A stretch of DNA of 64,000 nucleotides from Acidobacteriota bacterium (GTDB lineage Bacteria; Acidobacteriota; Blastocatellia; RBC074): the NCBI GenBank assembly GCA_016715865.1, contig JADJXM010000006.1:65486-129485 (forward strand). Direction: 5' to 3'. Numbering within the stretch: the stretch's first letter is position 1; each line of letters begins with the position of its first letter. This document shows, piece by piece, positions 5,718 to 51,679 of this stretch. The notes under the pieces were generated by a model. The model made no database searches, was not told the origin of the DNA, and saw only the letters and a program-made list of their open reading frames with translations. The translations under genes and the position numbers were made by a program.

Positions 5718-5820
5718 GAGTTGAAAGTAGAAAGTTGAAAGTCAGAGCGCTTGAGGCCCGGGCGGGTTTCTAACCACCGCCGAATCGCGGTTCATACTTT
5801 CAACTTTTAACTTTCAACTT
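5718..5820. repeat. Hairpin element A1: arms gttgaaagtagaaagttgaaagt / actttcaacttttaactttcaac around a roughly 50-nt core
   Basis: Inverted tandem heptamers (GTTGAAA/AGTAGAA) between the lipoprotein start and the decarboxylase stop. Confidence 0.7.
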
Positions 5821-5822
5821 TA

Positions 5823-7241
<1,419 letters not shown>

Positions 7242-7288
7242 GATGATGAGTCCTGTTTGATAATGGAATCACGGGCGCTCGATGTCGC

Positions 7289-8181
7289 TCACGTTCTGAC
7301 AATCGATTCGACCGCGGCTCTGATGACATACCCTGAGCGATCGAGCGCGGCCCGCGCTTCGTCCGCCGCCGCGCCTGCATGAAGCATAACGATGGCGACT
7401 CGCAGATCCCAGTCTGCAGCCTCGAGCGTCCCGGCGGCTTCCATCTCAGTCACGCCGCACTCGGCCACGACGATTCCAATCGCCCGCTGCCTGAGCTTGA
7501 TATTACGGGTCTGCAGGTTGGTCATGCGATTGCCGGTGACATACCCGAGACGGACCATGGTCAAGGTCGACAGCATATTGAGCACCAGCTTTTGGGCTGT
7601 GCCTGATTTCAGCCGTGTCGAGCCCGCGATGACTTCAGGGCCGGGGACCGGCTCGATCGGAATCTCCACGGCTCGGGCCAGTTCCGTGTTTTGATTGCAG
7701 GTGACGCAGGCAGTCAGGGCTCCGATGCTGCGCGCATATTCTACCGCGCCGATGGTGTACGGCGTGCGCCCGCTGGCGGCGATTCCGACGACCACATCAT
7801 GCGCGGTCAGCTTCTTCGCCTGCAGATCTGTTGCCCCAGCCTCGCGATCGTCTTCAGATGCCTCGATTGACCTGTAACACGCTTCATATCCGCCGGCGAT
7901 AATTCCCTGAACCATCTCCGGCGAGACGCCGAAGGTCGGCGGACATTCTGAAGCATCGAGCACTCCGAGCCTTCCGCTGGTCCCTGTCCCAACATAAAAG
8001 AGACGGCCCCCACGCTGCAGCCTCTCGACAATGCCGTCGACCGCTTTAGCAACTGCCGGAAGGACTTTCTCGACCGCTTCGGCGACCTTTTTATCTTCGC
8101 TGTTGATGACCTGCAACGCCTCGAGTGTCGGCAATTGGTCGATCTGTGAAGTCGCTGGGTTGATCTGTTCGGTTGTCGTCA
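7289..8181 (-). CDS. murQ: N-acetylmuramic acid 6-phosphate etherase
   Basis: SIS domain with the GTGTSGRLG motif and a MurQ-like N-terminus (MTTTEQ...). The upstream ORF extension to 8272 merely reads through repeat G2. Confidence 0.75.
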
Positions 8182-8185
8182 TAAT

Positions 8186-8282
8186 TAGAAGAAGTTTCCA
8201 GCGGAAGAAGTTTCCAGTTTCCAGTGACACAAAGTTTCCTGTACCAACTGGAAACTGGAAACTTTCTCTCACTGGAAACTAC
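8186..8282. repeat. Hairpin element G2 (GTTTCCA-arm family)
   Basis: gaagtttccagtttccagtg ... cactggaaactggaaac. Confidence 0.7.
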
Positions 8283-9284
8283 TTATGATTCCAGAGTCAT
8301 AGCCTTGGCCATCATAGCGGCTCCGATGACAGGCGGATCGATCGGCGCAGCGACGACCGCTTTGGGAGCGGCTTCGCGAATCAGATCACGCATCGGATCA
8401 AGAATCAGATCACCGGCTTCGAAGACGCCGCCGACATAGGAAACAATGATTGTCTCCTGTGCCATGCGAAGCTGCTCGATGACTGCGATGGCCGCGCGCG
8501 CAAGCTCCTCAGCGGCATCCTTCAAAATCTGACGCGCGACCGAATCGCCATCCGCCGCGGCTTTGACAACGATCCGCGAAAGTTGTGAAATCATGGCGGG
8601 GACTTCACCCGGCGAGTCATATATCACGGGCGGAAGCTCGGGCGGAGTTGTAACGCCGAAATGGCGCAAAACCGGCTCCATCATACTGGTCGGCTCTCCG
8701 CGATAATCCCAGGCCATGACTACGGCTTCGAGCGCGCGCCGGCCGATGTAAGATCCACTGCCCTCATCGCCCATAGCCGGCCCCCATCCGCCGGCCCTTG
8801 CGAATCGACCGCGAGTGTTGATCCCGCACGCGATCGAGCCCGTCCCGGCAATGATCACGACTCCGGGCTGATTGCGGGTCGCTCCAGCCAGCGCAACGCG
8901 GGCGTCCGTTTCAAGCGTGATGTGGGGAACAGGCAATGCATTCTTCAGTGCCGAGAGCATACGGGCGTGATGTTCGGGATGCGAGACGCCGGCCAGACCG
9001 ATACATGCGGCCGTGATTTTCGTAACCTCGATGCCAGCCTGATGACAGGCCTCATCGACCGCAATCCGTACATGCCCGATCGCAGCTTCCAGTCCGACGC
9101 GGATGAAATTGGCCGCCTCGGCGCGACCTTCACCGCATACTCGATCATTCTCATCTACTATCACCGCGCGGCAATTGGTGCCGCCCCCATCTACCCCCAG
9201 CCAGTAGCTGAGCGGTTCTCCACCTTCTTCCTCTTCTGGTTCGTTTTTTGGCGGTTCTGTCAAAACTGTTTCTATCAAACCCAT
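8283..9284 (-). CDS. BadF/BadG/BcrA/BcrD-type ATPase (N-acetylglucosamine/MurNAc kinase-like)
   Basis: LGVDGGGTNCR phosphate-1 motif of the ASKHA sugar-kinase superfamily. Sits in a cluster with murQ. Confidence 0.6.
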   Translation of the reverse strand: MGLIETVLTEPPKNEPEEEEGGEPLSYWLGVDGGGTNCRAVIVDENDRVCGEGRAEAANFIRVGLEAAIGHVRIAVDEACHQAGIEVTKITAACIGLAGVSHPEHHARMLSALKNALPVPHITLETDARVALAGATRNQPGVVIIAGTGSIACGINTRGRFARAGGWGPAMGDEGSGSYIGRRALEAVVMAWDYRGEPTSMMEPVLRHFGVTTPPELPPVIYDSPGEVPAMISQLSRIVVKAAADGDSVARQILKDAAEELARAAIAVIEQLRMAQETIIVSYVGGVFEAGDLILDPMRDLIREAAPKAVVAAPIDPPVIGAAMMAKAMTLES

Positions 9285-9619: not shown

Positions 9620-11377
<1,758 letters not shown>

Positions 11378-11384
11378 GATTAAG

Positions 11385-11459
<75 letters not shown>

Positions 11460-11464
11460 AATGA

Positions 11465-12471
<1,007 letters not shown>

Positions 12472-12518
12472 TGACGTGCCTCCGACACGATATTCGCTAT
12501 GCATTCTAAATCAGACTT

Positions 12519-13070
12519 ATGAAATTTAGCACTGTGAACAGGATAAGCAAGGGAGATGAAGGCAGGTTTCCAGGCAAATTGCAGCTTGACGACCCGGTCT
12601 CGATGCGTTACAAAAGGATGGAATTTTTGTCGATCCGGATCCGCTCCATTCCCTCTGGACGCGGATCAGAGAAGGTGCCTCTGCGTTTACTTCAAAAGAA
12701 CAAAAGGCAGGAGTCTGGCTTGCGAAACATACCGCGCTTTTGCTCCCTTGACGGATTCACCGAGTTGAGTTCAGCGCTCGGGGGTGTCGCGCTGCGAACG
12801 CTTGAGCCGTTCGATACCGTTTGTGCGCGGACATTGAATAACGACTATTACATCTTCCTGATTGAACCTGAATCGGGCAAGGCTCTGGTTCAGGGAGGCC
12901 GTTATTTCTCACAGCCCATCGAAGCCACCGTCAGCGGGTCCACCTTTGGCGGATGCATGCTCAAGATGGGCTGGCTCGGCATCGGCCTGCACATCGAAAT
13001 CTGCGCATCAGGCCAGCGCATCGTCACCTCGCCGGTCCAATCGCTTCACATCGAATATGCCGGCAACTAA
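12519..13070 (+). CDS. Hypothetical protein (weak PilZ-like resemblance at best)
   Basis: ORF only, with no confident motif. It is convergent with vanZ. Confidence 0.25.
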   Translation: MKFSTVNRISKGDEGRFPGKLQLDDPVSMRYKRMEFLSIRIRSIPSGRGSEKVPLRLLQKNKRQESGLRNIPRFCSLDGFTELSSALGGVALRTLEPFDTVCARTLNNDYYIFLIEPESGKALVQGGRYFSQPIEATVSGSTFGGCMLKMGWLGIGLHIEICASGQRIVTSPVQSLHIEYAGN

Positions 13071-13504
13071 CCCGCTTTTCTCTTCGCGTATAGTCGAATC
13101 AGTCCCAGTATCACCAGTCCGCCAGTCACGTCGATCGCGCTGTCGATCAATGATCCGTATCGCGTAGCTGTAAAGGTCTGATGGAATTCATCGAGCAGCG
13201 CATACGAGACAAGTATGATCAGCGTTCCGATGAACCAGCTCTGACGCCAGAGATCCCGCGCCCGGCCGCGAAATGCTCTGAAGAGCAGAGCCGCCAGTAT
13301 TCCATATTCAGTGAAATGGGCTGCTTTTCGAATCAGAAAATGGATCCGGTCGAGAGCGGGTGGATTCAGATGGATATCGAAGAAGCTGAGAATCGATTCA
13401 AGATACGATCCGGTATATTCGCCTGAGAATGTATCGGTCGAAAAATAGAAGATCATTGCCATCCAGGCCAGTGGAGGCAGCCAGTATCCGAGCATCTGTG
13501 TCAT
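13067..13504 (-). CDS. VanZ-family membrane protein
   Basis: Four transmembrane segments and the RKAAHFTEYG motif characteristic of VanZ-like proteins. Confidence 0.65.
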   Translation of the reverse strand: MTQMLGYWLPPLAWMAMIFYFSTDTFSGEYTGSYLESILSFFDIHLNPPALDRIHFLIRKAAHFTEYGILAALLFRAFRGRARDLWRQSWFIGTLIILVSYALLDEFHQTFTATRYGSLIDSAIDVTGGLVILGLIRLYAKRKAG

Positions 13505-13521
13505 TAAAGTATTTCGATCGA

Positions 13522-14406
<885 letters not shown>

Positions 14407-14430
14407 ACTCGATTCCCGTAACCCGGCGAA

Positions 14431-16526
<2,096 letters not shown>

Positions 16527-16563
16527 ATATCGATTATTCCGTTCGTAAGATAATAGGACAGGC

Positions 16564-17148
16564 CTATCTGGCTTTGCTCAGCTCCTGTCCGGCTCGCTCG
16601 ACCAGTTTTTTATCGTCTTCAACCGTCAATTCGCGACGGATCATCTGCTCAGCCAGCTCGACCGACTTGGTAGCCGTGAATTCCCTCAGATCAGCCAGGG
16701 CGATCTGACGGGCCGCGTCGATATCGCGCACCGCAGTCGCTCGAACCTTCTCAAGATCGCGCTGAGTCTCGGTCTGAATCCGCTCCCGTTCAACAATCGA
16801 TTCCCGTTCAGCCTGGGCCTTGATCTCGCCGATCTCGATGTCCAGCCGGTCAAGCCGCGCATCCAGATCGGCCATCTTCGCTGCTGCTTCGTCCTTCTCT
16901 CTTGCCGCGCGCTCGAGCGTCTTGCGCACATCCGCCAGTCGCGACTGGAAAAAGCCTCGAATCGGCTTGCGGACCAGAAAGTACATAACCCCGACAAAGA
17001 TCGCGAGGTTGACGGCCTTGGCAATGCCCGGATGAATTCCGCCTCCGCCGCTCAGCAAAAACAACGGTTGTATCTCTAAAAATGACATTGGAATATAAAA
17101 CGCTGCGAATGAAACGTTCCGGGACCAGAGACTATCAGTTGTCTTCAT
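16564..17148 (-). CDS. atpF: F1Fo ATP synthase subunit b
   Basis: Single N-terminal transmembrane segment followed by a long charged coiled-coil. Position in the operon supports the call. Confidence 0.7.
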
Positions 17149-30853: not shown

Positions 30854-33187
30854 TCAAAACTCTATCCTTCCGCCGATGATCGGGATCAGAGTCCGTTCGC
30901 GCAGGAAACCGGCCGTCCCGCTTCCCAGCCGGTAATTGACATCGACGACATTGGTGTATTTCGTCAGATTGAAGATATCGACGTAAGGCGAGAAGGACCA
31001 GCGCCTGAAATCGAAGCGGCGCTCGACGCGCAGATCGAGTTGGAAGAAGTTCGGCAACCTCAGAGCATTCCTGTCTTCAGGCCGCAACAGTTCAAACAGT
31101 GTCACTCGCGGAGGCTCGTTGAAAATCACAGGCGTCAGATTCGAGTAGGCGAGACCGCTCGCGACGCGCATTTTTGAAGCGAGCAACCATTGTCCCCAGA
31201 GCTTGATGCGGGTCAGGCCGATCAGCGTCAACTGGTGCGGGCGAGCGACTTCTGAAGGAAAAGTGAACCCTTCGGGTGTGAAACGCCTGCGGGCGCGCGT
31301 CCAGGAGTACCCCGCCTGACCGGCGAATCTTCCAGACAATGCCTTCTGAGCGGTGACTTCGACGCCCTGGACATCGGCTTCCCCAGTGTTAAGGTACCGC
31401 GGCGAGGTGCGTGTCGGTTGGACCAGCAGATCGTAGTAACTCTTACGATAAGCCTCGACTGTGACACGCACATCTTCACGCGCCAGCCATTCGATTCCGC
31501 CGATAGCGTGGACCGAGCGCTGCGCCTTGAGCGTGCGATTTTCCGGAGTTAACGCGAGCAGAAAGCTGGGAGGCGGCTGGCGATAGAGGCCCGCGGCCAG
31601 ATTGAGGGCGAAACGCGAACTGAGCCGGATGCGCGCACTTGCTCGCGGGCTGATCAGAGTCTGCCGCGTGACGCCGTACCTGTCGAAGCGCACGCCGGGC
31701 GAGATCGACAGTCGACTTGTCGCCTGCCATGTCGCCTGGGCATAGGCATAACCATTGACGGTCGAATCGATGCGCAAATGATGTTCGCGCGTCGGAGCTC
31801 GATACTCTTCGCCGATAGGGCTGTATCCGACGGGCGAACGCTCGAATGTATAAATGTCGCCCTGCTGGACGATCAGTGCTCCACCAGCCGCCAGATTGAC
31901 GCGCGGACTAAATGCGGTCGTCAACTCCTGCTTGATGCCGAACTGCGATTCGCGCAGGTCACGCCGGCGCTGCAGCGTGGTCCGATCGATGCGCAGAAAG
32001 CTGCCGTCATTGTGTTCGCCGATGCCCCAGGCTGTAATGTTCGAAAGCGTGCGATCTCCGAGAGTCGAGCTTAGCGTGGCGCCGGCGATGTAACGCTTGC
32101 CGGTACGTTCGCTGATCAACTGATCACGACGCGAAGCTCTTTGCGCGGTCTCGAACGGAACGGTGATGCGCTCGGCGAAGGTCATCGCCGTCAGTGACAA
32201 TTTGTGCCGCGGAGCCAGATCGACGTCTATCTTATTAATAACATCCAGATTGCGCGGCTTGCCGATATCGCCCAGATCGAAAAGCTCGAAGGCCAGGTCG
32301 ATGTAGCTGCGCCGGATTGAGACAAACCAGCCGGCGCGCGGCCCGAGCGGGATTTCGACGCTCCCGCCGGCTACGCCAGAATCCGCAAAGAGACTTCCCT
32401 GCACCCTGTCGCGCGTCGCTTTGCGAATGGTGATGTCGAGTGCGGAAGACATCCGATCGCCATAGCGCGCGCCGAATCCTCCGGCTGAAAATTCCAGGCG
32501 GTCAAAGACGTCCGGCGCCAGCAGCGCCGCTCGCCCTCCGCGACCGTTGTCGTATTGATCGGAAAAATAGGTGAAGTCGCCGATGGGGATGTTGTCGATG
32601 AAGGTCAGATTTTCGCTGGGGAAACCACCGCGCACCAGCAGGTCGCCAAACTGCGCCGAGTCGGCGGTCACTCCGGGCAAAGACGAGATGGCGCGCAGAG
32701 CATCGCCTCCCGTGCCGGGCAGCGATCGCAGCTCGGCACGTCGCAGCGTCACGTTGCTGATCGGCTGATCCGTCGTTTGAACATAGTATCCGCTGCTGAC
32801 CGTCATCTCTTCGGAGACCTGCAGGTCCAATCGCACATCGTAGATCGAAGTGTAACGGGCCGTAACCGTGATCAGTCCGATGATGAGTGGAGCATAGCCC
32901 CTGGCCTTCACTCGCGCCGCCCAGGTTCCGGGCGGAAGCTCCAGCCTGTAGCGACCTTCCTCATCGGTGACGGCTTCAGTCCGGTCAGCGATGGCGATTA
33001 CAGCGCCGGCGACCGGCTGTCCGCTGACGCGTTCAGTGACCTGACCGGTCACGGTTCCAGATTGAGGCGAAGGGTTCTGAGCGCCCGCGCTGGCGACTGC
33101 CGCGAGCATCACCATCGCGACCAGACAGGACTTTACCGGGAGATCCATAATCTGACTGCATACTCTGCCAACTAAATTTTCTGACAT
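30854..33187 (-). CDS. TonB-dependent receptor with N-terminal carboxypeptidase-regulatory-like domain
   Basis: Signal peptide, a CarboxypepD_reg-like Ig domain (VTGQVTERVSGQPVAGAVIA), a plug, and a C-terminal barrel ending in aromatic F. Confidence 0.8.
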   Translation of the reverse strand: MSENLVGRVCSQIMDLPVKSCLVAMVMLAAVASAGAQNPSPQSGTVTGQVTERVSGQPVAGAVIAIADRTEAVTDEEGRYRLELPPGTWAARVKARGYAPLIIGLITVTARYTSIYDVRLDLQVSEEMTVSSGYYVQTTDQPISNVTLRRAELRSLPGTGGDALRAISSLPGVTADSAQFGDLLVRGGFPSENLTFIDNIPIGDFTYFSDQYDNGRGGRAALLAPDVFDRLEFSAGGFGARYGDRMSSALDITIRKATRDRVQGSLFADSGVAGGSVEIPLGPRAGWFVSIRRSYIDLAFELFDLGDIGKPRNLDVINKIDVDLAPRHKLSLTAMTFAERITVPFETAQRASRRDQLISERTGKRYIAGATLSSTLGDRTLSNITAWGIGEHNDGSFLRIDRTTLQRRRDLRESQFGIKQELTTAFSPRVNLAAGGALIVQQGDIYTFERSPVGYSPIGEEYRAPTREHHLRIDSTVNGYAYAQATWQATSRLSISPGVRFDRYGVTRQTLISPRASARIRLSSRFALNLAAGLYRQPPPSFLLALTPENRTLKAQRSVHAIGGIEWLAREDVRVTVEAYRKSYYDLLVQPTRTSPRYLNTGEADVQGVEVTAQKALSGRFAGQAGYSWTRARRRFTPEGFTFPSEVARPHQLTLIGLTRIKLWGQWLLASKMRVASGLAYSNLTPVIFNEPPRVTLFELLRPEDRNALRLPNFFQLDLRVERRFDFRRWSFSPYVDIFNLTKYTNVVDVNYRLGSGTAGFLRERTLIPIIGGRIEF

Positions 33188-35487: not shown

Positions 35488-37407
<1,920 letters not shown>

Positions 37408-37588
37408 TCGTTATTCTTCAAGTCGCTCCTGCTTATCAGTCCCCGTTCATGGCAAAAATTTAATCTCCCCGGCCAAAACTTTTCAAGGCGGGCGGGAGAT
37501 CATACTTGATCATCGACCGAGTTTGGAAAAGAATATGATGTATCCCCTGAGAAACTGCTATCTTGTCCGTCCCGGTGACATAAAAAAG

Positions 37589-40500
37589 ATGAGCCATAAT
37601 CCAGAGGACAATTCAGCTACGCCGGCGCCAACCCGACGACGCCTCAGATGGCTGCGTCCAAAACGCCTCGTAGCGGCGCTGCTCATCGCGGTCGCGCTGC
37701 TCGGTCTGCTGGGCCTCGGCGGATGGCTCTACATTCGTTCTGAAAATTTCAACAGATTCATCGCTGACCAGATCAAGAACAAGCTCAGGGAATATGGGCT
37801 GCGCGGAGAGATCGGCGGATTCGGCCTCGCACTGAGCCAGCAGACGGCTTCCCTCAGGGATTTCAAAATATACAACGAGCAAAACGGCAAGCTGCTTGCG
37901 ACGATCGACGCGGTCCGAATTTCATTCAAGATCCGCGAGCCATTCGCGGCAAGACTGAGCCGTGAAATCGGCGTCAATCTGGCCGAGATCGATGGGCTGA
38001 AGCTGAATCTTGAGATCGACAAGGATGGTCGGAGCAGTTTCGAGGGGCTGCACACTCCGCCTCGCAAGGTCAGACGCCTGTCATTCGATACCTCAAAATT
38101 GAAAGGAATGCTGACGGACAGCTCGGTCAGATTCTCAGACCTCCGGCGCGAAATCGAGATAGATCTTGGAGGCATCAGCGCAACGGCTGCTCCGCTGCCG
38201 GATAATTCAGGGGTGATATCGGTCCAGTTCGAAGGCCGTGGGGGACGGATCGAGCGACAGCAGCGTACGGCCTCGATCGAATCGCTGGTCATCGACTGCC
38301 GGGTTGCCGAATCCGGTCTGACCATTGAGAAGCTGACGCTCGATTCCGATTTCGCACAGGCCAGCATTAAAGGAGGCATCGAAACGTGGTCCCCTGTCAA
38401 ATACGGTTTCGATTTCGATGCCCGGATCAAGGCCGAAGAACTGACCCGCGTCTTTTTGCCGGATGTTGAAATCAGCGGAACTGCGACGAGCAAAGGCAGG
38501 TTCGAGGGCGAACAAACGGATTATCGATTCAACGGCGATGTCGCCTCGTCCGATCTGGATGTCTACGGCGCGCAACTGCGGGATCTGAAATTCAACCGGC
38601 TCAGGGGATCGGGCAGAGGCGATCGATTCGATTTCACCTGCGATCGTCTTTCGGCTGGATCGACCACGATCGACAAGATCATCATCGGACCCGCATCGAT
38701 CAACCAGGTGAAGGGCGATTTCAGGAAGATGGTATTGCAAACCAGATCGCCCTCAGCTCAGATCGGCACTGTCGAATGGACTGAGAGCAAGCTGAGCAAC
38801 CTCATGCTGAACAGCATGACTGCCGATTTCGATTTTCATTCCGGACGATTCGCATATGACGTTAAAACCGCCGCGAACCTGCAAGAGGGAGAGATCACCA
38901 GCGTCAAATTCAGCAATGCCAGCGCTCAGGCCGTATTCGACAAGAACGGTCTTGGTTTGACGGAGATACAGGCGGATGTCCTGGGCGGCAAAGCACAGGG
39001 GACCTTCGAGCTGCCATTGGGCAGTGGAACGATATCCAGGGCCACGGCAAGCTATTCCGAGTTGCAGGCCCGGGAACTGATCTCGGCGCTGCTCAATGCC
39101 GGCCAGGAGAAGACAGCGACCCTGGTGCCACTTGCCGGACGGGTGAGCGGTCAGGCTGAGCTGACCTTCAAAGGCGCCGACCCGCAAACCCTGAACGGAA
39201 AAATCAGCGCCCATTTCGCCGGCGCCACGGGCGAATCGCTGGATGCCATTCCGATCAACGGCGACACTTCAATCGACGTCACAGACGGCATGTTTCAAGT
39301 CAGGGATACGCAATTCACTACCGATGCCACACGTTTGAACGCCGAGGGCACGATGGCCGTCGTCGGAGACTCCGATCTGAAGCTGAGCATCGTTTCGACC
39401 AGGGCCGAGCAGCTGATACAGATCGCACGGTCGATCGAATCAGCACGCCCGTACATCACCGAATACGAACCGCAGATGATCGGAAACTTCAGTTTTAACG
39501 GAACCCTGCGCGGAAGAACCGTTGAGACAGCCGGCGGCGAGATCACAGGCTTGACAGAAGAGTTGACGCTGGATGGCGAGATCGACGCCGAAACGGTGGG
39601 GCTGCGCGACGCGCTGCTGGGCGCCTTCTCCGGCAGCCTCTATTTATCGAATGAAGAGATCCGCGTGTCACGGGGACTGATCAAGGCCTCGAACGGCGGT
39701 TCGCTGAAATTCGAGCTGCAAACTCCGTTCGACCCCAATTCGTCCACGGGACGTCTTGATGCATACATTGACCGGCTGGAACTGGATTCTTTGCTCGCGG
39801 CTGCTGGTGCACCGGACTCCGGCCAGGTTGTGACCGGCGAAGTGACCGGGGAGGTTCATCTGACTGAGCTGCCCGCCACGCTTCGCGGAACCGCGCAAGT
39901 CAGGCTCATCAACGGGATGATCGCCAATCAGCCGGCTGAAATGGCCATGGCGGACCTTCGTTTCGACGGTAAGACGGCTCTGCTCAACGAGCTTGCAGTT
40001 CGCATGCGCGAGAGCAGCCTGAGCGTTCAGGGATCGATGAACCTCGACGATTACTCTTTTAAGGTCGCGGGCAAGGCCGATCGCATTGCGCTCAGCGAAA
40101 TCGCCCGGGAGTTGACGGACGAAGGCCAGGAGAACAGGGTCCGCGTGGATGGGACGGCAGATGCCGAATTCACTCTCAGCGGTCGGATAATTCCCGGCAA
40201 GCAACCGGACATCGATCGGGAAAATCTTGAAATTTCGCTGACTGCACGGGGCAGGGATGTGCTCATCAACGGACGCGACGCCGGCAAATCGGCGCTCACC
40301 GTTCGAACCAGCCCCGGCGGCCGAATCGATTTCGGCGTTAGTTCCGACCTGCTTCTCATCGAAAAGCCGCCCGACGAGGCCGCCCATCCCGAGATACTGC
40401 GTGGCAACATCGAATTGCGCAAACCCGGAATTCCACTGCAGCTTGAAAGCGATCTCGTCAATCAGGAATTGTCCCCCATTCTGGAACTGCTGGCTCCGGA

Positions 40501-43500
40501 TGTGAAGAACCTTGTTCGCGGGACGGTGAGCGGAAAACTGCGGATGGAAGGCCCGACGCAGGATGCCGCCGGGAATGCGACGATCGAAATGATGCGTGGC
40601 GAATTGACATTGACCGAGGCTTCGCTGTTTGTGGCAGACACGCCCGTGACCGTCAACACCCCTGTTTCCGCCACGCTGGAGTCGATGAAGATCGGCATAG
40701 CTCCAACGCGTTTCACAGGCGAAGGGATCGATTTGAGCGTTGCAGGCGATTTCGGCCTCAAGGGAGACGCCGAGATGAGCCTCTCGCTCAATGGCATGAT
40801 CAATCTCAACAAGCTGCCGTTGAGCGGTTCCGATCTGAGTCTGAATGGTAACGTCTCCATCGATGGCACGCTCAAGGGATCGGCTGATAATCCTGTTCTC
40901 GGAGGAAAGATCGATCTCGAAGGCGTTGGCCTGTCGTCACGGGACCTTCCCTTCTTCATCTCGGACGGAAAAGGCTCAATCACACTGAGCGGCGATCAGG
41001 TGGTGCTTAATGAATTCAACGCCGATGCGAATGATGGGACGCTCAAGGCCTCAGGTACGATGAAGATCGAGGGCCTCAAACCGAAGGAATGGAACTACAC
41101 CATTCTGGCCGACAACGCCACGCTCAACTATCGCGACGTGAGCGCCAATATCATCGGCGACCTGAGACTGTCCGGCAACATGGAAGGTCAGACACTGGCC
41201 GGAACGATCACCATACCGCAGGCTGAATACGCGCCGGATCTCGACCTTGACAATCTGCTCACGAGCGGAGCCGAAATCTCGTTGCTCGGTTTCGGGCTGG
41301 CCGGCGGATCGGACAACATCGGAGGCTTGCCGACAATCAGGCTGAACCTGCGTGTCGAAGCCAAAGATTCTCTGATAGTTCGCAATGAACAGATCAACGC
41401 GGTCGGCTCAGCACTGCTCAACGTCACCGGCTCACTGACCAATCCGGATCTTGCAGGGCGTATTGAGAGCGAAGGCGGTTCAGTACGTTTTCGCGGGCAG
41501 CGATACGAGATCACTATCGGCACGCTCGACCTGCCCCCCGGAGACGCATCTCCGCTGCTCAACCTGGTGGCTGAAAGCGAATACGGCGGCTATCGCGTGA
41601 CAATCGGTTTCATCGGTCCGATCGACGACATCGACCTGACACTTCGTTCCGAACCACAACTGGTGAGAGACGAGATCATCGCCCTGATCACAACCGGGCG
41701 GACCGAAGCAGGAACGATCACATCGAGCGATCCGCTCCGCACCGGCGTCGGCACTGCCGCTTCCCTGCTCTCTTCGGGACTCATCTCGCGTCCGACTGAG
41801 CGGTTGCTCGGCCTGAGCCGCTTCCAGATCGATCCGGTCATCCGTCCCAACGCTAACCCCGCCGCGCGACTGACGGTCGGACAGCAGCTCTCGCGTGACG
41901 TCTATCTCAGTTACTCGACCAACCTCGCCACCGAACAGGATCAGACCGCACTGGCCGAATACACCATCTCGAACCGGTTCTCGGCGCTCGCCTCCTACAC
42001 CCAGGGCGGCAGTTCGACACGCCAGGGACTGCGCGAAAATACATTCACAATCGAACTGCGCGGTCGCAAACGCTTTTCGATCGGATTCAGCCCCGATACG
42101 CTCTCGGCCGGTGGCGGGGTGGCCAGCACGACCGACCAGATCGCGGACTTTTCGCGAGCGACCTTGCCTGCGGCCGAGGTGAAGGTGGATGAAGTGCCCG
42201 ATCTGAAGCTGAACAACAAGAAACTGCGCGAATTGTTGCCGGTCATGACTCAGGGATTCAGCCGTTCGCTGGCGAGACTCGGAGAACAGCGACTCAGAGA
42301 GTACCTTCAGGAACACGGATATTTCTTCGCCGAGGTCGCCTATCGCTGCGAACCCGTCACGTGTTCGGGCGGCGATCTCAATCTCTATTACGACATCGAA
42401 CCGAATGCCATTTATGACCTCAAGGATATTCGGATCGAAGGGACGGACCTGGTCAAACTGAAAAACATCGAAGACCAGCTGCAATCGAAGACCGCAAGCG
42501 ATTTCGGGGGAATTCCGTTTCTCAAGGATCTGCCGCTGATTGGAGGCTACGTTCGCGGCCTGACCAGCAACGACCGGCTGCGCAGCGATGCCGAAATCAT
42601 TCGCCGTACTCTGGTCGATATCGGATACAGGAAAGCCGATGTCAAATCAAGGCTGGCCGTCAACGCGAACAATGATGAACTGGTCGTCGTCTTCGAGATC
42701 GATGAAGGCGTTCAGTCAGAAGTCGCCGGCCTGACACTGCGGGGCAATTCGATAATCACCGCGGATGAGTTGCTCGAAGCCGTCCCGATTCAGGAAGGCG
42801 AAGCCTTTTCGATCAGCCGTGCTCTTGCCGGTGTACAGCAGATCAGGGGGCTATACAACGACCTCGGTTATTTGCAGGCCACTGCCGAGCTCGATCTCGA
42901 GGATATCGACGAAGACAGCGTTCAGTTGATTTACACGGTCAATGAAGGCGCGCGCGCGGTCATCAGCGAAATCGAGATCAACGGGCTGACAAAGACCGGC
43001 AAGGGATGGGTTCGACGCTATTTTGATTTCAAACAGGGCGAGATACTGACACCTGACAAAATCAGGCAGACCCAGCGGGACCTGTACGCGACCAATGCAT
43101 TTCGTGAAATCAACATCCTGACCGATCCGATCGGCGGAGATGATGGCTCAGCCCATCGCATCTTGGTCAATCTGACGGAAGCGAAACCTCTGCTGCTGGT
43201 CTATGGTCTTGGCTACTCGACCGACGACGGTGTGCGCGGATTGATGGAAGTCGCAAACACGAACCTCGCCGGCTCGCTCGATGCTCTTTCGTTGAGGCTG
43301 CGCGGCAGCCGGCGCGAACAGTTCGGACAGCTTTCGTTCACTGATCTGCGTCCTTTCGGTTCGCGATTACCGACGACGATGTCGGTCTTTTACAACCGCA
43401 ACAACAATCTGGTGCCGATCATCCGACGGCGTCTGGTCGACGGCAAGGAAGAGAACGTTCGAGATCAGTCGTTCGGTCTGAACCGTTTTGCGGCCTTCAT

Positions 43501-44338
43501 TCAAACAGAACGCAAGGTCAGTGACCGGACCTCGCTGCGCATCCGGTACAATTATGAACGGGCCTCGCTCTTCAATTTCGAGAACCTCCCGGAGACCGAG
43601 ATTACGCGCAACGAACGTGACGTCAGGCTGGGAATGTTTTCGATCGGCATCTCCCGCGATACACGCGACAGCGTGCTCAACCCGACACGGGGACAACTGG
43701 TCAGCGCCGACCACTCGCTGGCGGCGAATATCTTCGGTGGCAACGAATCATTCAACAAGTTTTTCGGCACCTATCAGCGATACCACACGCTATCGAACGG
43801 ATTCCCCCTGCTCGGTGCGACCACGCTCGCGTTTTCCGGTCGAATAGGACTGGCTCAGGTCTTTCGCGATGCCGATCGGAACAACGACGGAGAGATCAGC
43901 GAAAGTGAACAACGGCTCCCAATCAGCGAACGATTCTTCTCAGGCGGTGCAACCACGCTGCGCGGTTTCCGATTCGAAACCGCAGGCCCCCAGGGTGTGC
44001 TGGCTCCGCGTCCGGACAGGCCGGGCGAATTGCCGACCCTCATCCCGCTCGGCGGCGACGCGCTGGCGATCTTCAATTTCGAATTGCGTTACCCGATCAA
44101 TGAACGCTGGCGCCTGGTTCCCTTCTACGATCTGGGTAATGTCTTTCGCCGGATCAATGATTTCAAATTTCGCAACATGACTCACACGGTCGGCATCGGC
44201 ATCCGCATCAACACCCCGCTCGGACCAGTGGGACTTGATTACGGATTCCTGATCGATCCGCCGGCCTATCCTTATGGCGCCGCGATGCTTCGACAGCCCC
44301 GCGGAGCTTTTCATATCCGGTTAGGTCAAACCTTCTAA
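37589..44338 (+). CDS. Giant envelope protein fusing a TamB/AsmA-like (DUF490) periplasm-spanning module to POTRA domains and an Omp85 (TamA/BamA-type) beta-barrel
   Basis: N-terminal signal-anchor ([23 protein letters not shown]). About 1450 aa of repetitive beta-rich sequence ends in the DUF490 signature [27 protein letters not shown]-like repeats follow with no stop or signal peptide in between. The C-terminus has an Omp85 barrel with the loop-6 motif LRGFRF and terminal ...LGQTF. The ORF is open from 37205, and the likely start is Met 37589. Confidence 0.7.
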
Positions 44339-47852: not shown

Positions 47853-47962
47853 CCCACCCTTCCCTTTCTTACTCTTGAGTATTACTATTTCCCATACCTG
47901 CAATGCTTTGCAGGCGTCAATTCAACTATTGGATTAAGAGTCATCAAACCAAGGAGTGCCCC

Positions 47963-48577
47963 ATGCGAAGCTTGTTGTTTGTGACATTGCTTCTTCTTCT
48001 CTGCGTACCCGTATTCGCGCAGGATACTCCGAGAGTGGAACTATTCACCGGATACTCACTGCTCAGAACTGACGATCAGACGATCGACCTGAATCAGTTC
48101 GGGCTGACTGGCGCCGCAACACGTGATGCGACAACGCTTCACGGATGGAATGCAACACTCGGTCTCAATTTTTCAGGCATCTTCGGCATTGTGGTTGATG
48201 GTGCCGGTGGATATGGAAAGATCGATTATTCACTTTCAGCCCCGGGTTTGTCGGGGTCAGTCGGGATCAAGACCCGACTGCATACGATCATGATCGGCCC
48301 GCAAATCAACCTGCGCGGCGAAGAGATTCTATTCTTCGTCCGGGCGATGGGCGGCGTAGCCCGAATCGATCAGTCGTTCGATGTCGCAGGCCAGAAAGTC
48401 TCATTCCACGAGACCGCCTTTGCCGGGGCGGCCGGCCTCGGCCTCGATTTCAAATTGTCGGATTCCGTCTGGCTGCGGCTGCTGCAGGGTGATTACGTTG
48501 TCACGCGGTTCAAAGAGGGTGTTTCAGATAAAAATCAGAGGAGCATTCGAATTTCAACCGGCCTGGTCTTTCGTTGA
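47963..48577 (+). CDS. Outer-membrane beta-barrel protein (OmpA-like transmembrane domain/porin family)
   Basis: Signal peptide, alternating amphipathic strands and a C-terminal ...STGLVFR. Confidence 0.5.
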
Positions 48578-48965: not shown

Positions 48966-51335
48966 TCATTTGAAAATAAACCGCAGCCGGCCGCCGGCCA
49001 TACGCGGATGGCCGAAGTGAGTCCCCTCGAATGGATTGCCGAAATTGTAAGCGAAGGGCCGATCAGCAAGGTTCTGAAGATCGAGCTGCGCGCTGACGGT
49101 GACTCGATCCCTTGAGATCAGTTCGATTCCGGCCGAAAGATCGAAGACATACCATGGTTTGACGCGCGCGCGATCGAAATCGACCAGTTCTGCTCCGCGC
49201 TCCTCCATGAGATCTTCCAGCCTGTCCTCTTCGACCTCGAGCGGGACTCCGCTTTCATATCGTCCCGAGAGAGACGCCCACCATTTGCCGCGCTGATAGC
49301 TGAGTCCGAAGGCTCCGACGTTGCGCTGATCGTGATCGGGCAAAAACTTCGTTCCGGGCCCGATCTCGATCGCTTCATCCGTCAGGAACAATCCGCCGTT
49401 GATCGGTCCCGTCTGCAGTATTCTGCCGTTGGTGTAGCTGATAAACGACGACCATCCTTTGTATATCGGTATATCCAGCCGGACATCCAGACCGCGCGCA
49501 AACCCTTTTGCGACGCTGTTCGGGAAAGCTATGGTCGTGCCAAAAAAGACATTAGGATCGTCGAAATTGCGAAAATTGCGGTGCCAGAATGCAACATCCA
49601 GCCTGACCAATCCGGCTAAATCCTGGGCAAATCCGACTTCATAAGCCGAGACGCTTTCGGGATGAATTTCGGCCCCTCCGGGATTGCCTTCGGCGAAGGG
49701 TGAGAGCTGCCGCGCCTCAACCGAGTTGGAAAGCAGCAGATTCTCGACCTGGGGTGGCATAAACATCCGGTTGAAAGAGGCGCGCAGAACCGTGTGAGTC
49801 CGCACAATGGTCCAGGCTGCGCCGATGCGCGGGCTGAGCTGATCGTCTGTGACCGGCATCGTCGATCGATCGTATCGGAGACCGGCATTCACCCTCAGAT
49901 TTTTGGTCGGATTGAACGTATCCTGAATATACCAGGAGAACCATGTCCCGTTCTGACTGCCGCGAAAGATGAAAGGATTTTCCGGGGTGAATGCAAGAGC
50001 CGCATCGCTGACTTCCAGCTCGTCGGCCTCCTCCGGATCGGTCACGGCGAAGGTGAAGAATTCACGCGGAGTCACGCGCGCGGCCTCGATACCTGATTTG
50101 ATCGTGTGCGAGCCCTTGCCGATGGTCAGGCCGGCCAGAAATCCCTGCCGGGCATGCCGTCGATCCTGTGTCGCATTGATCGGCGTATCGAACTCGCTGC
50201 CGATCAATTTCGACTCATAAGATCGACGAAACCATGCGACATTGCTGACCGCGTTCGCCGACCAGACATGCTGCCAGCTGACAGATTGACCCTGATCGCG
50301 CAGCCGCTGCTCCTGATCCTGACCGGCGAGCTGCTGTTTCAGCCGATTTGTGACATGAAAATCGGCGCCGTTGGCGGCAATGTCGATCAGCAGGATGTCC
50401 TTCTCAGTCGGGTGCCAGTCTGCGCGGGCATTGAGCTTGCCCGTCCCTCCGCGGTTGTTGAAATTCCCCAGATCGATCGGATCCAGAAACCGGTCCGAAA
50501 TGCTGGTCGATCCATTGAAATAGACCCCGAAGGTGCGATGCAACTTTCCGCCGGCATTGGCCGCCAGTTCGCGGGCATGGAAACTTCCCATCCCCAGACT
50601 GGCTCCTCCGGCGAATGACTGGTCGATGCCCGATTGCGGCTGTATCTGAACCACAGCGCCCGACCTGCCGCCGAACTCCGCAGGGATATTGCCTGTAATT
50701 ATGTTGAGCGAGCGGATCATTTCGGTGTCGAAACTGCCGGCCGAGACCGCGTCGATCCGGTCAACCGTTGGAATGCCATCGATGACATAAAGTATCCCGT
50801 CATCGACCCCGCGAATATGCAGTAATCCGTTGTTTTGAGTCGTAAAACCCGGCGTCGTCGCAATCAGCCGTTGCAGCGCCAGACTCTTCGTCGCTCCAGG
50901 TGCGCGACGGATGAGAGATTGGGACAATTGTGTCTGTGTGCTGGTCGAATCAGGATTGATCAGCGCCTGTTGCTCAACTGTCGTCACCTGCTCAGTGATC
51001 GCCGCAGGACTCATCCTGAATTCCACGATCCGCTCGATGTTAGAGTTGACTGCGATCTGCCTGGTTTCCGATCTGAAGCCGGCGGCATTCACCTGCAGCG
51101 AATATCCGTTAAACGTTACATTGTTGAAGACGAACTCCCCTGATTGTCCACTCAAGGTTACAAACCGATCTCCCGTCAACGGATTCAAAAGCTCGACCTG
51201 AGCGCCGGCCAGCCTGGCTCCTGACGCATCCATGACCGCACCTCGAACCGTGCCGATCTGAATCTGACCCGCTGCTTCGATCGATAAAAATATAGGAAAA
51301 AGACAGAGCATCAATCTGTAAATCCACTTATGCAT
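48966..51335 (-). CDS. TonB-dependent receptor with N-terminal carboxypeptidase-regulatory-like domain
   Basis: Signal peptide, a CarboxypepD_reg-like N-domain, a plug and a barrel whose C-terminus is ...RLRFIFK. Confidence 0.8.
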   Translation of the reverse strand: MHKWIYRLMLCLFPIFLSIEAAGQIQIGTVRGAVMDASGARLAGAQVELLNPLTGDRFVTLSGQSGEFVFNNVTFNGYSLQVNAAGFRSETRQIAVNSNIERIVEFRMSPAAITEQVTTVEQQALINPDSTSTQTQLSQSLIRRAPGATKSLALQRLIATTPGFTTQNNGLLHIRGVDDGILYVIDGIPTVDRIDAVSAGSFDTEMIRSLNIITGNIPAEFGGRSGAVVQIQPQSGIDQSFAGGASLGMGSFHARELAANAGGKLHRTFGVYFNGSTSISDRFLDPIDLGNFNNRGGTGKLNARADWHPTEKDILLIDIAANGADFHVTNRLKQQLAGQDQEQRLRDQGQSVSWQHVWSANAVSNVAWFRRSYESKLIGSEFDTPINATQDRRHARQGFLAGLTIGKGSHTIKSGIEAARVTPREFFTFAVTDPEEADELEVSDAALAFTPENPFIFRGSQNGTWFSWYIQDTFNPTKNLRVNAGLRYDRSTMPVTDDQLSPRIGAAWTIVRTHTVLRASFNRMFMPPQVENLLLSNSVEARQLSPFAEGNPGGAEIHPESVSAYEVGFAQDLAGLVRLDVAFWHRNFRNFDDPNVFFGTTIAFPNSVAKGFARGLDVRLDIPIYKGWSSFISYTNGRILQTGPINGGLFLTDEAIEIGPGTKFLPDHDQRNVGAFGLSYQRGKWWASLSGRYESGVPLEVEEDRLEDLMEERGAELVDFDRARVKPWYVFDLSAGIELISRDRVTVSAQLDLQNLADRPFAYNFGNPFEGTHFGHPRMAGGRLRFIFK

Positions 51336-51679
51336 TTCCAAACTCCTCGCTTAGGTCAATTTCAGCCGATCAACAATCTGCTCGGCATTTTTTTATTCGA
51401 CTCGTTGTTGATCCAGGAAATAGACGGAACGGTTATCGACAATATATCCGTTTTTCAACGGAGGGAAAAGGTTGAAGTTTCCAGAGAGAGAGAAGTGCCA
51501 GCAAGAGAGGGGAAAAAAGGACTCGGCCTCAATCCACTGAAACTGGATCTTGAACTTCTCTCCGAAACTTCTCTCGAAATTCGTGTACACTTGAACTCAT
51601 CGCGACATCAGATCGCCGCTGATTACATATGCGGAATCTGAATTGATTCCAATCTCTACCGATAATTGAGGACGCCCGA

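Follow-up and report, generated by a model that had tools for sequence, protein, structure and literature searches.

Can TamB, the inner-membrane-anchored lipid-bridge protein of TAM (the translocation and assembly module), and its outer-membrane Omp85 partner exist as one polypeptide, and what would such a chain do? The question is raised by a gene in a 64,000-nucleotide stretch from an Acidobacteriota bacterium of the class Blastocatellia (GenBank assembly GCA_016715865.1, contig JADJXM010000006.1, positions 65,486 to 129,485 of the forward strand), the whole of which is referred to here as the window. A frame without stop codon extends over positions 37205-44338 of the plus strand, and translation from the ATG at position 37589 yields 2249 aa. 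This start is supported by a 98%-identical orthologue (locus L001), because the open frame of the latter begins just 3 codons upstream of the equivalent Met. Searches of the translation with Pfam and NCBIfam profiles placed all domains in a single chain, which comprises, from the N- to the C-terminus, a signal-anchor helix, a beta-groove of ~1300 aa, a full DUF490 domain, a linker, four POTRA domains and an Omp85 barrel. TamB is, in other words, joined to an outer-membrane barrel partner in one gene. An earlier note on this DNA, made from the letters alone, had described one open reading frame (ORF) with TamB, POTRA and Omp85 barrel in this order; every element that it listed was recovered close to the position given there, including the DUF490 signature string of 22 residues at about 41.63-41.70 kb, and the profile search that it had proposed indeed assigned TamB, POTRA and Omp85 to the same polypeptide (Pfam). 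Structures were predicted with AlphaFold2 (AF2) in two pieces, covering aa 1-1200 and aa 1145-2249 (the latter from a 60-sequence alignment). The features of the gene are as follows.

37589-44338, plus strand: complete coding sequence for the TamB-POTRA-Omp85 fusion, with 2249 aa and a stop codon (ORF translation, Pfam/NCBIfam domains, orthologous open frames).
37664-37738, plus strand: signal-anchor transmembrane helix, aa 26-50; a cytoplasmic tail rich in Arg/Lys, aa 1-25, lies N-terminal to it (hydropathy, AF2).
37739-41653, plus strand: AsmA/TamB-type repeating beta-groove ('beta-taco') of ~1300 aa (BLASTP to the stand-alone TamB P0103, AF2, Foldseek).
41021-42010, plus strand: DUF490/TamB match (PF04357), aa 1145-1474 (E 5.8e-38; 131.6 bits, cut-off 22.4).
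41666-41809, plus strand: two DUF490 helices, aa 1360-1369 and 1389-1407 (AF2 model residues 216-225 and 245-263).
41867-42076, plus strand: TamB's short C-terminal beta-strands, aa 1427-1496 (five strands in AF2; last 11 residues, aa 1486-1496).
42077-42190, plus strand: inter-module linker of 38 aa, aa 1497-1534 (AF2 confidence below 50; neither Met nor hydrophobic stretch).
42191-43180, plus strand: four POTRA domains, aa 1535-1864 (Pfam PF07244 in four stretches, E 8.7e-28; AF2).
43190-44335, plus strand: Omp85 16-strand beta-barrel, aa 1868-2249 (AF2 secondary structure; PF01103 at aa 1892-2249, E 2e-45).
43874-43909, plus strand: EF-hand-like loop of 12 residues, aa 2096-2107 (weak Pfam EF-hand_1 match, E 0.005).

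The distribution of the fusion was determined by scanning one genome per species (GTDB r232) with a query of 600 aa around the junction, and the best 80 of the 119 confirmed loci were kept. The same junction was thus encoded at 119 loci in species-representative genomes; among the best 80, the match was contiguous throughout, over essentially residues 1-600 of the query at 77 loci and up to a contig end at the other 3. Sixty-four of the 80 were uncut by contig ends and possessed one stop-free frame of 2191-2488 codons (predicted proteins of 2173-2483 aa) with 45-98% identity; these full-length orthologues and the window protein form the set of 65 sequences used below. A word-index search with the junction yielded more than 12 independent partial proteins from metagenomes (Blastocatellia or other Acidobacteriota metagenome-assembled genomes (MAGs) and JGI metagenomes) that carry PF04357, POTRA and Omp85 in one chain, at 45-68% identity and with an alignment continuous across the junction. 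The earlier note had suggested a search for orthologous fused genes in related Acidobacteriota, and these turned out to be numerous; rather than separate tamB and tamA/bamA genes in all orthologues, the fused form was found to be conserved, with a split form in Pyrinomonadaceae.

The same loci speak to the simplest objection, namely that neighbouring tamB and omp85 genes were merged into one long ORF as an artefact of assembly or sequencing. Relatives do possess split tamB-omp85 operons with a short gap, and a broken frame was seen at 2 of the 80 loci, but these two, a hybrid 'opera' contig (L035) and a nanopore MAG (L045), look like frameshift errors rather than real pseudogenes. One frame is kept in the 64 uncut loci, which stem from many studies and assemblers, and the junction is spanned by the independent metagenome proteins. 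Moreover, deletion of a stop codon could not produce the fused form, because it is without the signal peptide and ~300 aa of the split Omp85. For the fused family, an artefact is effectively excluded, its remaining probability being very small.

The 65 full-length proteins fall into several clades, one of which is longer (2358-2483 aa) and has a groove extended by roughly 230 aa. MAGs such as CAVUPU01, CAWCKY01, DATEMY01 and DASTMP01 contain three fused paralogues each. The paralogue sets (L021/L045/L076, L023/L039/L040, L025/L042/L074 and L032/L044/L079) show ~42-48% mutual identity and lie in unrelated neighbourhoods; they recall the redundancy of TamB, YhdP and YdbH in E. coli, with the difference that every fused copy brings a barrel of its own. 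Thirteen loci with fused genes 53-98% identical to that of the window are titled Heliomicrobium or Heliobacteriaceae (Bacillota), comprising twelve ENA 'binchicken'-type MAG assemblies (L001, L004, L013, L019, L024, L026, L038, L043, L052, L061, L066 and L072) and one GenBank MAG (L007). These titles look like taxonomy-mapping errors for Blastocatellia.

The N-terminal half has the layout of a TamB-type bridge protein. The Kyte-Doolittle profile reaches its maximum of 2.57 at aa 27-45 and stays at or below 1.24 in the rest of the protein, and this single hydrophobic segment coincides with an AF2 helix at aa 26-50, in agreement with the signal-anchor helix proposed earlier. A basic stretch, a hydrophobic stretch and the motif (Y/W)xRSExFNR follow each other in nearly all 64 orthologues, a few of which have an uncertain predicted start. 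Weak Pfam matches to AsmA/DUF748 cover aa 23-198. The AF2 model of aa 1-1200 (predicted local distance difference test score, pLDDT, 84.6) shows the transmembrane helix followed by ~65 consecutive strands, such that a long continuous beta-groove, as in TamB/AsmA-like bridge proteins, lies between the anchor and DUF490. Foldseek matched this groove best, though with low TM-scores, to beta-sheets that bind lipid in ApoB100 and in LPD-3, a bridge-like lipid-transfer protein (E 2e-8 to 2e-6). The stronger indication of its nature comes from BLASTP homology to stand-alone TamB over aa 50-1496: alignment to the 1665-aa P0103 gave 29% identity over aa 291-1496 and 25% from aa 50 to ~290.

The end of this half is its most conserved part. 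The two DUF490 helices, with a mean column identity of 0.78, are the most conserved segment of the protein and correspond to the region of the conserved amphipathic helices of E. coli TamB, whose functional role has been described (PMC13119328). The C-terminal strands that follow reach a column identity of 0.75, and the end motif F[TS]IE[LIFV]RGR[KQ]RF[SA]LG is found, apart from occasional substitutions, throughout the 64 orthologues; the corresponding C-terminal segment of E. coli TamB enters the TamA barrel. The terminus of the stand-alone TamB P0103 (...FSFEIRFRKRF-COOH) aligned exactly to aa 1486-1496 of the fused protein. A free TamB C-terminus thus aligns residue for residue at aa 1496, which marks the end of a complete TamB module; its presence had been predicted correctly, and its length of ~1450 aa is corrected to 1496 aa. 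In one respect the chain departs from TamB proper: the DUF490 beta-signal strand is internal instead of forming a free C-terminus, and the chain runs on for another 753 aa.

These 753 aa contain the Omp85 half. Beta-alpha-alpha-beta-beta units at AF2 model residues 385-460, 466-561, 567-641 and 647-720 resolve the POTRA-like repeats that had been noted at 42.18-43.1 kb into four domains between nt 42191 and 43180, the second of which has an insertion of roughly 30 aa. POTRA1 contains a hairpin with a Cys pair (C1587/C1592, nt 42347-42364; RCEPxxC), and CxPxxC is found in 65/65 sequences; the window protein has just two further cysteines, and C1587 and C1592 likely form a periplasmic disulfide. 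The barrel was modelled with a pLDDT of ~90 and has a conservation of 0.75. As in other Omp85 proteins, N-terminal POTRAs precede a 16-strand barrel with a PF01103 match above the cut-off, a loop-6 motif (LRGF, aa 2124, nt 43958-43969) and an aromatic C-terminus (beta-signal ...HIRLGQTF, with terminal Phe), which bears out the barrel with (V/L)RGF in loop 6 and aromatic end described before. A cleavable signal peptide of its own, usual in Omp85 proteins, is missing. The EF-hand-like loop is situated two residues upstream of LPISERFF...LRGF, which includes the loop-6 motif; the pattern Dx[DN]x[DN][GK]x[ILVF]xxx[DE] was seen in 50/65 fused orthologues, with one paralogue clade lacking it, and also in the Omp85 of the split Pyrinomonadaceae operon; it may represent a Ca2+ site in or near loop 6.

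What would such a chain do? The reading that we consider most probable, at roughly 75%, is a covalent TAM, in which a TamB lipid bridge would be permanently tied to its own Omp85 anchor; we infer an uncleaved product, a hybrid barrel formed in cis, lipid transport and insertion of the barrel by a separate BamA. The N-terminal helix, which presumably stays uncleaved, would hold the chain in the inner membrane, and the ~1300-aa hydrophobic beta-groove would cross the periplasm. The DUF490 end, with its amphipathic helices and short C-terminal strands, would reach the outer membrane, where, after the flexible linker of 31-47 aa, the same chain would continue into four POTRAs and the 16-strand barrel that anchors the bridge. 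The TamB C-terminal strands would most likely be accommodated in the lateral gate of the barrel in cis, giving an intramolecular hybrid barrel, and phospholipid would most likely be carried from the inner to the outer membrane; the assembly of a subset of outer-membrane proteins is possible. The fusion would enforce 1:1 stoichiometry and permanent coupling, and the barrel itself would probably be inserted by a separate BamA.

This proposal is modelled on E. coli, in which TamB is an inner-membrane-anchored beta-taco carrying phospholipid, the DUF490 C-terminal strands form a hybrid barrel with strand beta1 of TamA, and the POTRAs hold the groove (PMC12800296, PMC13119328). E. coli TamB inserts six strands, an even number (PMC12800296); if an even number were kept here, the end of the TamB module would be periplasmic, beside the beginning of beta1. 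From there, POTRA1, four domains away, would plausibly be within reach of a tether of 31-47 aa, whose bounded length fits this path. Indirect hints of a hybrid barrel are the match of the model to open BamA structures and the high conservation on both sides of the junction. The best Foldseek TM-scores (0.63-0.66) were obtained with open, substrate-engaged states of BamA (9mge, 8bnz, 8qn4); most other BamA entries scored ~0.51-0.60, and one N. gonorrhoeae BamACDE entry also reached 0.60, so that the ranking is a weak hint that the barrel was modelled in an open state.

Several points weigh against this assignment. The proposed lipid transport is drawn entirely from work on E. coli, and the fused protein is, judging from the profile scores, not a strict orthologue of E. 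coli TamAB: in NCBIfam searches, the proteobacterial TamB equivalog NF047952 scored 61.9 bits (cut-off 825) and the TamA equivalog NF047950 85.9 bits (cut-off 625), and there are four POTRAs versus three in TamA. No global Foldseek match of the N-terminal groove exceeds a TM-score of 0.26, which is weak. In the AF2 model of aa 1145-2249, which comprises groove strands, two helices, five short strands, the disordered linker, the POTRAs and the barrel (mean pLDDT 80.9), the predicted TM-score (pTM) is just 0.60 and the TamB C-terminal strands have a pLDDT of 45-79 by 10-residue block.

The linker bears on whether the chain stays in one piece. It had been described as ~35 aa long and devoid of a signal peptide; the latter part holds, and the length is corrected to 38 aa. 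Between aa 1497 and 1552 there is neither a hydrophobic stretch nor any Met, and the Omp85 half thus lacks its own export signal. No promoter or terminator above chance was found at the junction. The structure prediction that had been suggested for the junction placed a disordered linker (pLDDT <50) between the TamB strands and POTRA1. With a conservation of 0.43, the linker is among the least conserved regions, and its flanks are highly conserved (helices 0.78, TamB C-terminal strands 0.75, POTRA1 0.72).

Disorder, low conservation and an abundance of Pro, Ala, Ser, Thr and Gly, as in this segment, are typical of protease-accessible regions, and the end motif of the TamB module (...RGRKRF) is kept exactly as in free TamB C-termini. 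The gene could thus be translated into one precursor that is cut in the linker after export, the mature form being a two-subunit complex of TamB and Omp85; the fusion would then serve co-export and stoichiometry alone, as in polyproteins or autotransporter passenger/barrel pairs. However, no conserved cleavage motif was found in the linker among the 65 sequences, and a length bounded at 31-47 aa in 65/65 of them suggests a tether under geometric constraint. Cleavage would also be unneeded for function, since the TamB-TamA complex is stable in E. coli anyway (PMC13119328). We regard a cleaved product as unlikely and retain the permanently tied bridge.

A different alternative concerns the identity of the Omp85 half, which could be the main or only BamA of the cell. 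The protein would then be a single-chain beta-barrel assembly machine joined to TamB, a covalent version of the BamA-TamB pair of Borrelia, that couples general outer-membrane protein insertion to lipid supply. The best NCBIfam model of this half is in fact BamA (TIGR03303), which scored far above TamA (86 bits) and TamL (75 bits), yet its 271.2 bits fall marginally short of the cut-off of 297.15; the half also has four POTRAs instead of five, and its neighbours encode SelB, a Zn-ribbon protein and CorA. A split Omp85 linked to tamB in a related operon (P0029) does pass the BamA cut-off and adjoins a SurA-like gene, and TamB pairs with BamA itself in lineages with a single Omp85 (PMC4494059, PMC13382580). 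Against a housekeeping BamA stand the occurrence of up to three fused paralogues in some genomes and the finding that a bamA-type context (skp, lpxD, fabZ) was present at none of the 5 fused-gene loci whose neighbours were examined. Acidobacteria have, in addition, been reported to possess a canonical BamA plus a second, TamB-associated copy (Heinz et al. 2015), and the insertase site would be occluded if TamB strands permanently occupied the lateral gate (PMC13119328). An Omp85 half that acts as the general BamA is, on balance, distinctly unlikely, and the reading as a TamB bridge with a dedicated barrel anchor is preferred.

The origin of the fusion can be approached through its unfused relatives, the nearest of which are Pyrinomonadaceae TamBs of ~1650 aa (1644-1665) with 35-42% identity in DUF490. 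On two long Pyrinomonadaceae contigs (L081, L083), tamB is followed, after a gap of 176-279 bp, by an omp85 gene for a protein of 1132-1222 aa, which has a typical signal peptide and aligned, from its aa 307 onwards, to aa 1535-2249 of the fused protein with 36% identity. This split operon is the closest relative in sequence and shares with the fusion the order TamB-then-Omp85, a TamB that ends exactly at the fusion point and the EF-hand-like loop. It differs in that it comprises two genes, and in that the Omp85 has its own signal peptide, ~300 extra N-terminal residues (~three more POTRAs) and a low-complexity insert; its upstream neighbour is ribBA, compared to selB for the gene of the window. 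The split Omp85 of L081 (1222 aa, nt 13174-16842) carries both the ~300 extra residues and, inserted between POTRAs, a stretch of ~100 aa with much Pro, Ala, Asn and Thr; it fits what Heinz et al. 2015 noted in Acidobacteria as a 'seven-POTRA second BamA'. A third split operon, on L084, has the order ribBA-tamB-omp85-surA_N; its Omp85 (P0029, nt 5790-8402, 870 aa), with the SurA_N gene next to it, scores 388 bits against the BamA cut-off of 297, from which it appears that the partner of TamB may be BamA itself in some lineages.

Because split operons of the same gene order exist in Pyrinomonadaceae and on L084, the gene in the window can be understood as a fusion of known partners, tamB and omp85. 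It would have arisen from such an operon by loss of the intergenic region, the Omp85 signal peptide and ~three N-terminal POTRAs.

The fused architecture extends beyond the main family. An exhaustive HMMER search with aa 1400-1640 retrieved 21 representatives of this family at E <1e-30. It also retrieved ~31 more full-length representatives (P0225-P0309), which measure 2030-2310 aa and have ~740-800 aa between the end of TamB and the C-terminus. In four members of this second clade, which includes L086 (nt 10001-16834), DUF748/AsmA, TamB, POTRA and Omp85 were confirmed by Pfam, and one member was called as a single gene on an NCBI contig of 559 kb. The source names include 'Acidobacteriota bacterium' and Bryobacteraceae (class Terriglobia), so that the architecture occurs in at least two classes of Acidobacteriota. 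The C-terminus of most proteins in this clade is ...FFFSIGQAF or a close variant of it; P0244, the one member examined, has a shorter linker of ~18 aa and appears likely to have five POTRAs, and a word-index search with its junction gave 10 matches. Another distant, partial fused example is P0049.

In a neighbour-joining tree of DUF490, computed without support values, the unfused TamBs fall between the two fused clades, a branching that would fit two independent fusions as well as a single ancient fusion that was later split. The second history can be extended to the suggestion that the covalent chain is ancestral in Acidobacteriota, where the origin of TamA has been placed (Heinz et al. 2015), and that its fission gave rise to split tamB-omp85 operons and, in a wider sense, to the two-gene TAM. 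This scenario is rather unlikely; if it applied, the Omp85 partner of TamB would primarily be a built-in membrane anchor rather than an insertase.

Compared with known systems, the fusion combines features found separately elsewhere. In E. coli, TamA and TamB are two polypeptides, the beta-signal of TamB is C-terminal and TamA has three POTRAs, whereas the protein described here is one chain with an internal beta-signal strand and four POTRAs, and its Omp85 half lacks a signal peptide and is more like BamA than TamA. The TamB of Borrelia burgdorferi is encoded beside, and binds, a BamA-type Omp85, and its C-terminal strands have been modelled as completing the BamA barrel (PMC5582053, PMC13382580); these proteins are, however, separate, and the partner is the sole, essential BamA with five POTRAs. 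The long MlaD of Veillonella parvula is likewise a single lipid-trafficking polypeptide, which has an inner-membrane helix at one terminus and forms an outer-membrane beta-barrel at the opposite one, but it has an unrelated fold (an MCE hexamer and a helical tunnel), a small 10-strand non-Omp85 barrel and a role in retrograde trafficking (PMC10665443). In chloroplasts, the inner-envelope TamB homologue TIC236 docks its DUF490 onto the POTRAs of the Omp85 protein TOC75 (10.1101/2021.04.25.441383); this is a system of two separate proteins that serves protein import in a eukaryotic organelle. Omp85-WD40 proteins, called 'reminiscent of a BamA-BamB fusion' in the 2014 Omp85 survey (PMC4104836), provide a precedent for an Omp85 barrel joined to an otherwise separate partner, although that partner is a BamB-like beta-propeller and the protein has no inner-membrane anchor and does not span the envelope. 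A fusion to TamB is not among the architectures presented in the main text of this survey.

The earlier note knew of no description of this architecture, and none of a natural TamB-Omp85 fusion was found in the open-access literature searched on TAM and Omp85, including work on TAM evolution (PMC4494059), TamL and the 2026 TamAB structures. In the domain-based annotation of NCBI and JGI, fused proteins already bear the names 'TamB domain-containing protein' or 'YaeT'. It is now known that TamB itself extends into the outer membrane, and the combination of inner-membrane helix and outer-membrane barrel within a single polypeptide has a precedent in Veillonella, with its long MlaD; the fusion described here is a large family. 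It is thus of interest to specialists in outer-membrane biogenesis without being categorically new.

Two structural studies from 2026 differ as to whether the hybrid barrel formed by TamA and TamB represents the permanent functional state (PMC13119328) or one of two interchanging states (PMC12800296). The fact that the covalent joining has been kept across at least 64 species-level genomes, with several paralogues in single genomes, is an argument that function tolerates, and probably benefits from, permanent 1:1 coupling. The family also supports the view of DUF490 as an Omp85-docking anchor for a lipid bridge. At the same time it poses a puzzle of biogenesis, in that the 16-strand barrel has to get to the outer membrane from the far end of a 245-kDa chain that is fixed in the inner membrane. 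For structural work it offers a ready-made single-chain construct, and it may provide a design for engineered TamB-linker-TamA fusions in model organisms.

In the window, genes for GSDH and SelB lie divergently upstream of the fused gene, and genes for a Zn-ribbon protein, a hypothetical protein and CorA lie downstream; the same GSDH-SelB / fusion / Zn-ribbon / CorA synteny was seen on a complete 9.5-Mb chromosome (L046, 54% identity). No second Omp85 or TamB gene was found in the window or in 1.3 Mb of fetched loci, a sample that says little about whole genomes. The immediate divergent neighbour and the outer-membrane proteins that flank the locus are the following.

35488-37407, minus strand: SelB, divergent upstream neighbour.
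30854-33187, minus strand: TonB-dependent-receptor-like barrel with a CarboxypepD_reg N-domain.
47903-48577, plus strand: small OMP_b-brl protein.
48966-51341, minus strand: TonB-dependent-receptor-like barrel with a CarboxypepD_reg N-domain.

Among the other Omp85 sequences collected, P0046 is a canonical bamA in an lpx context.

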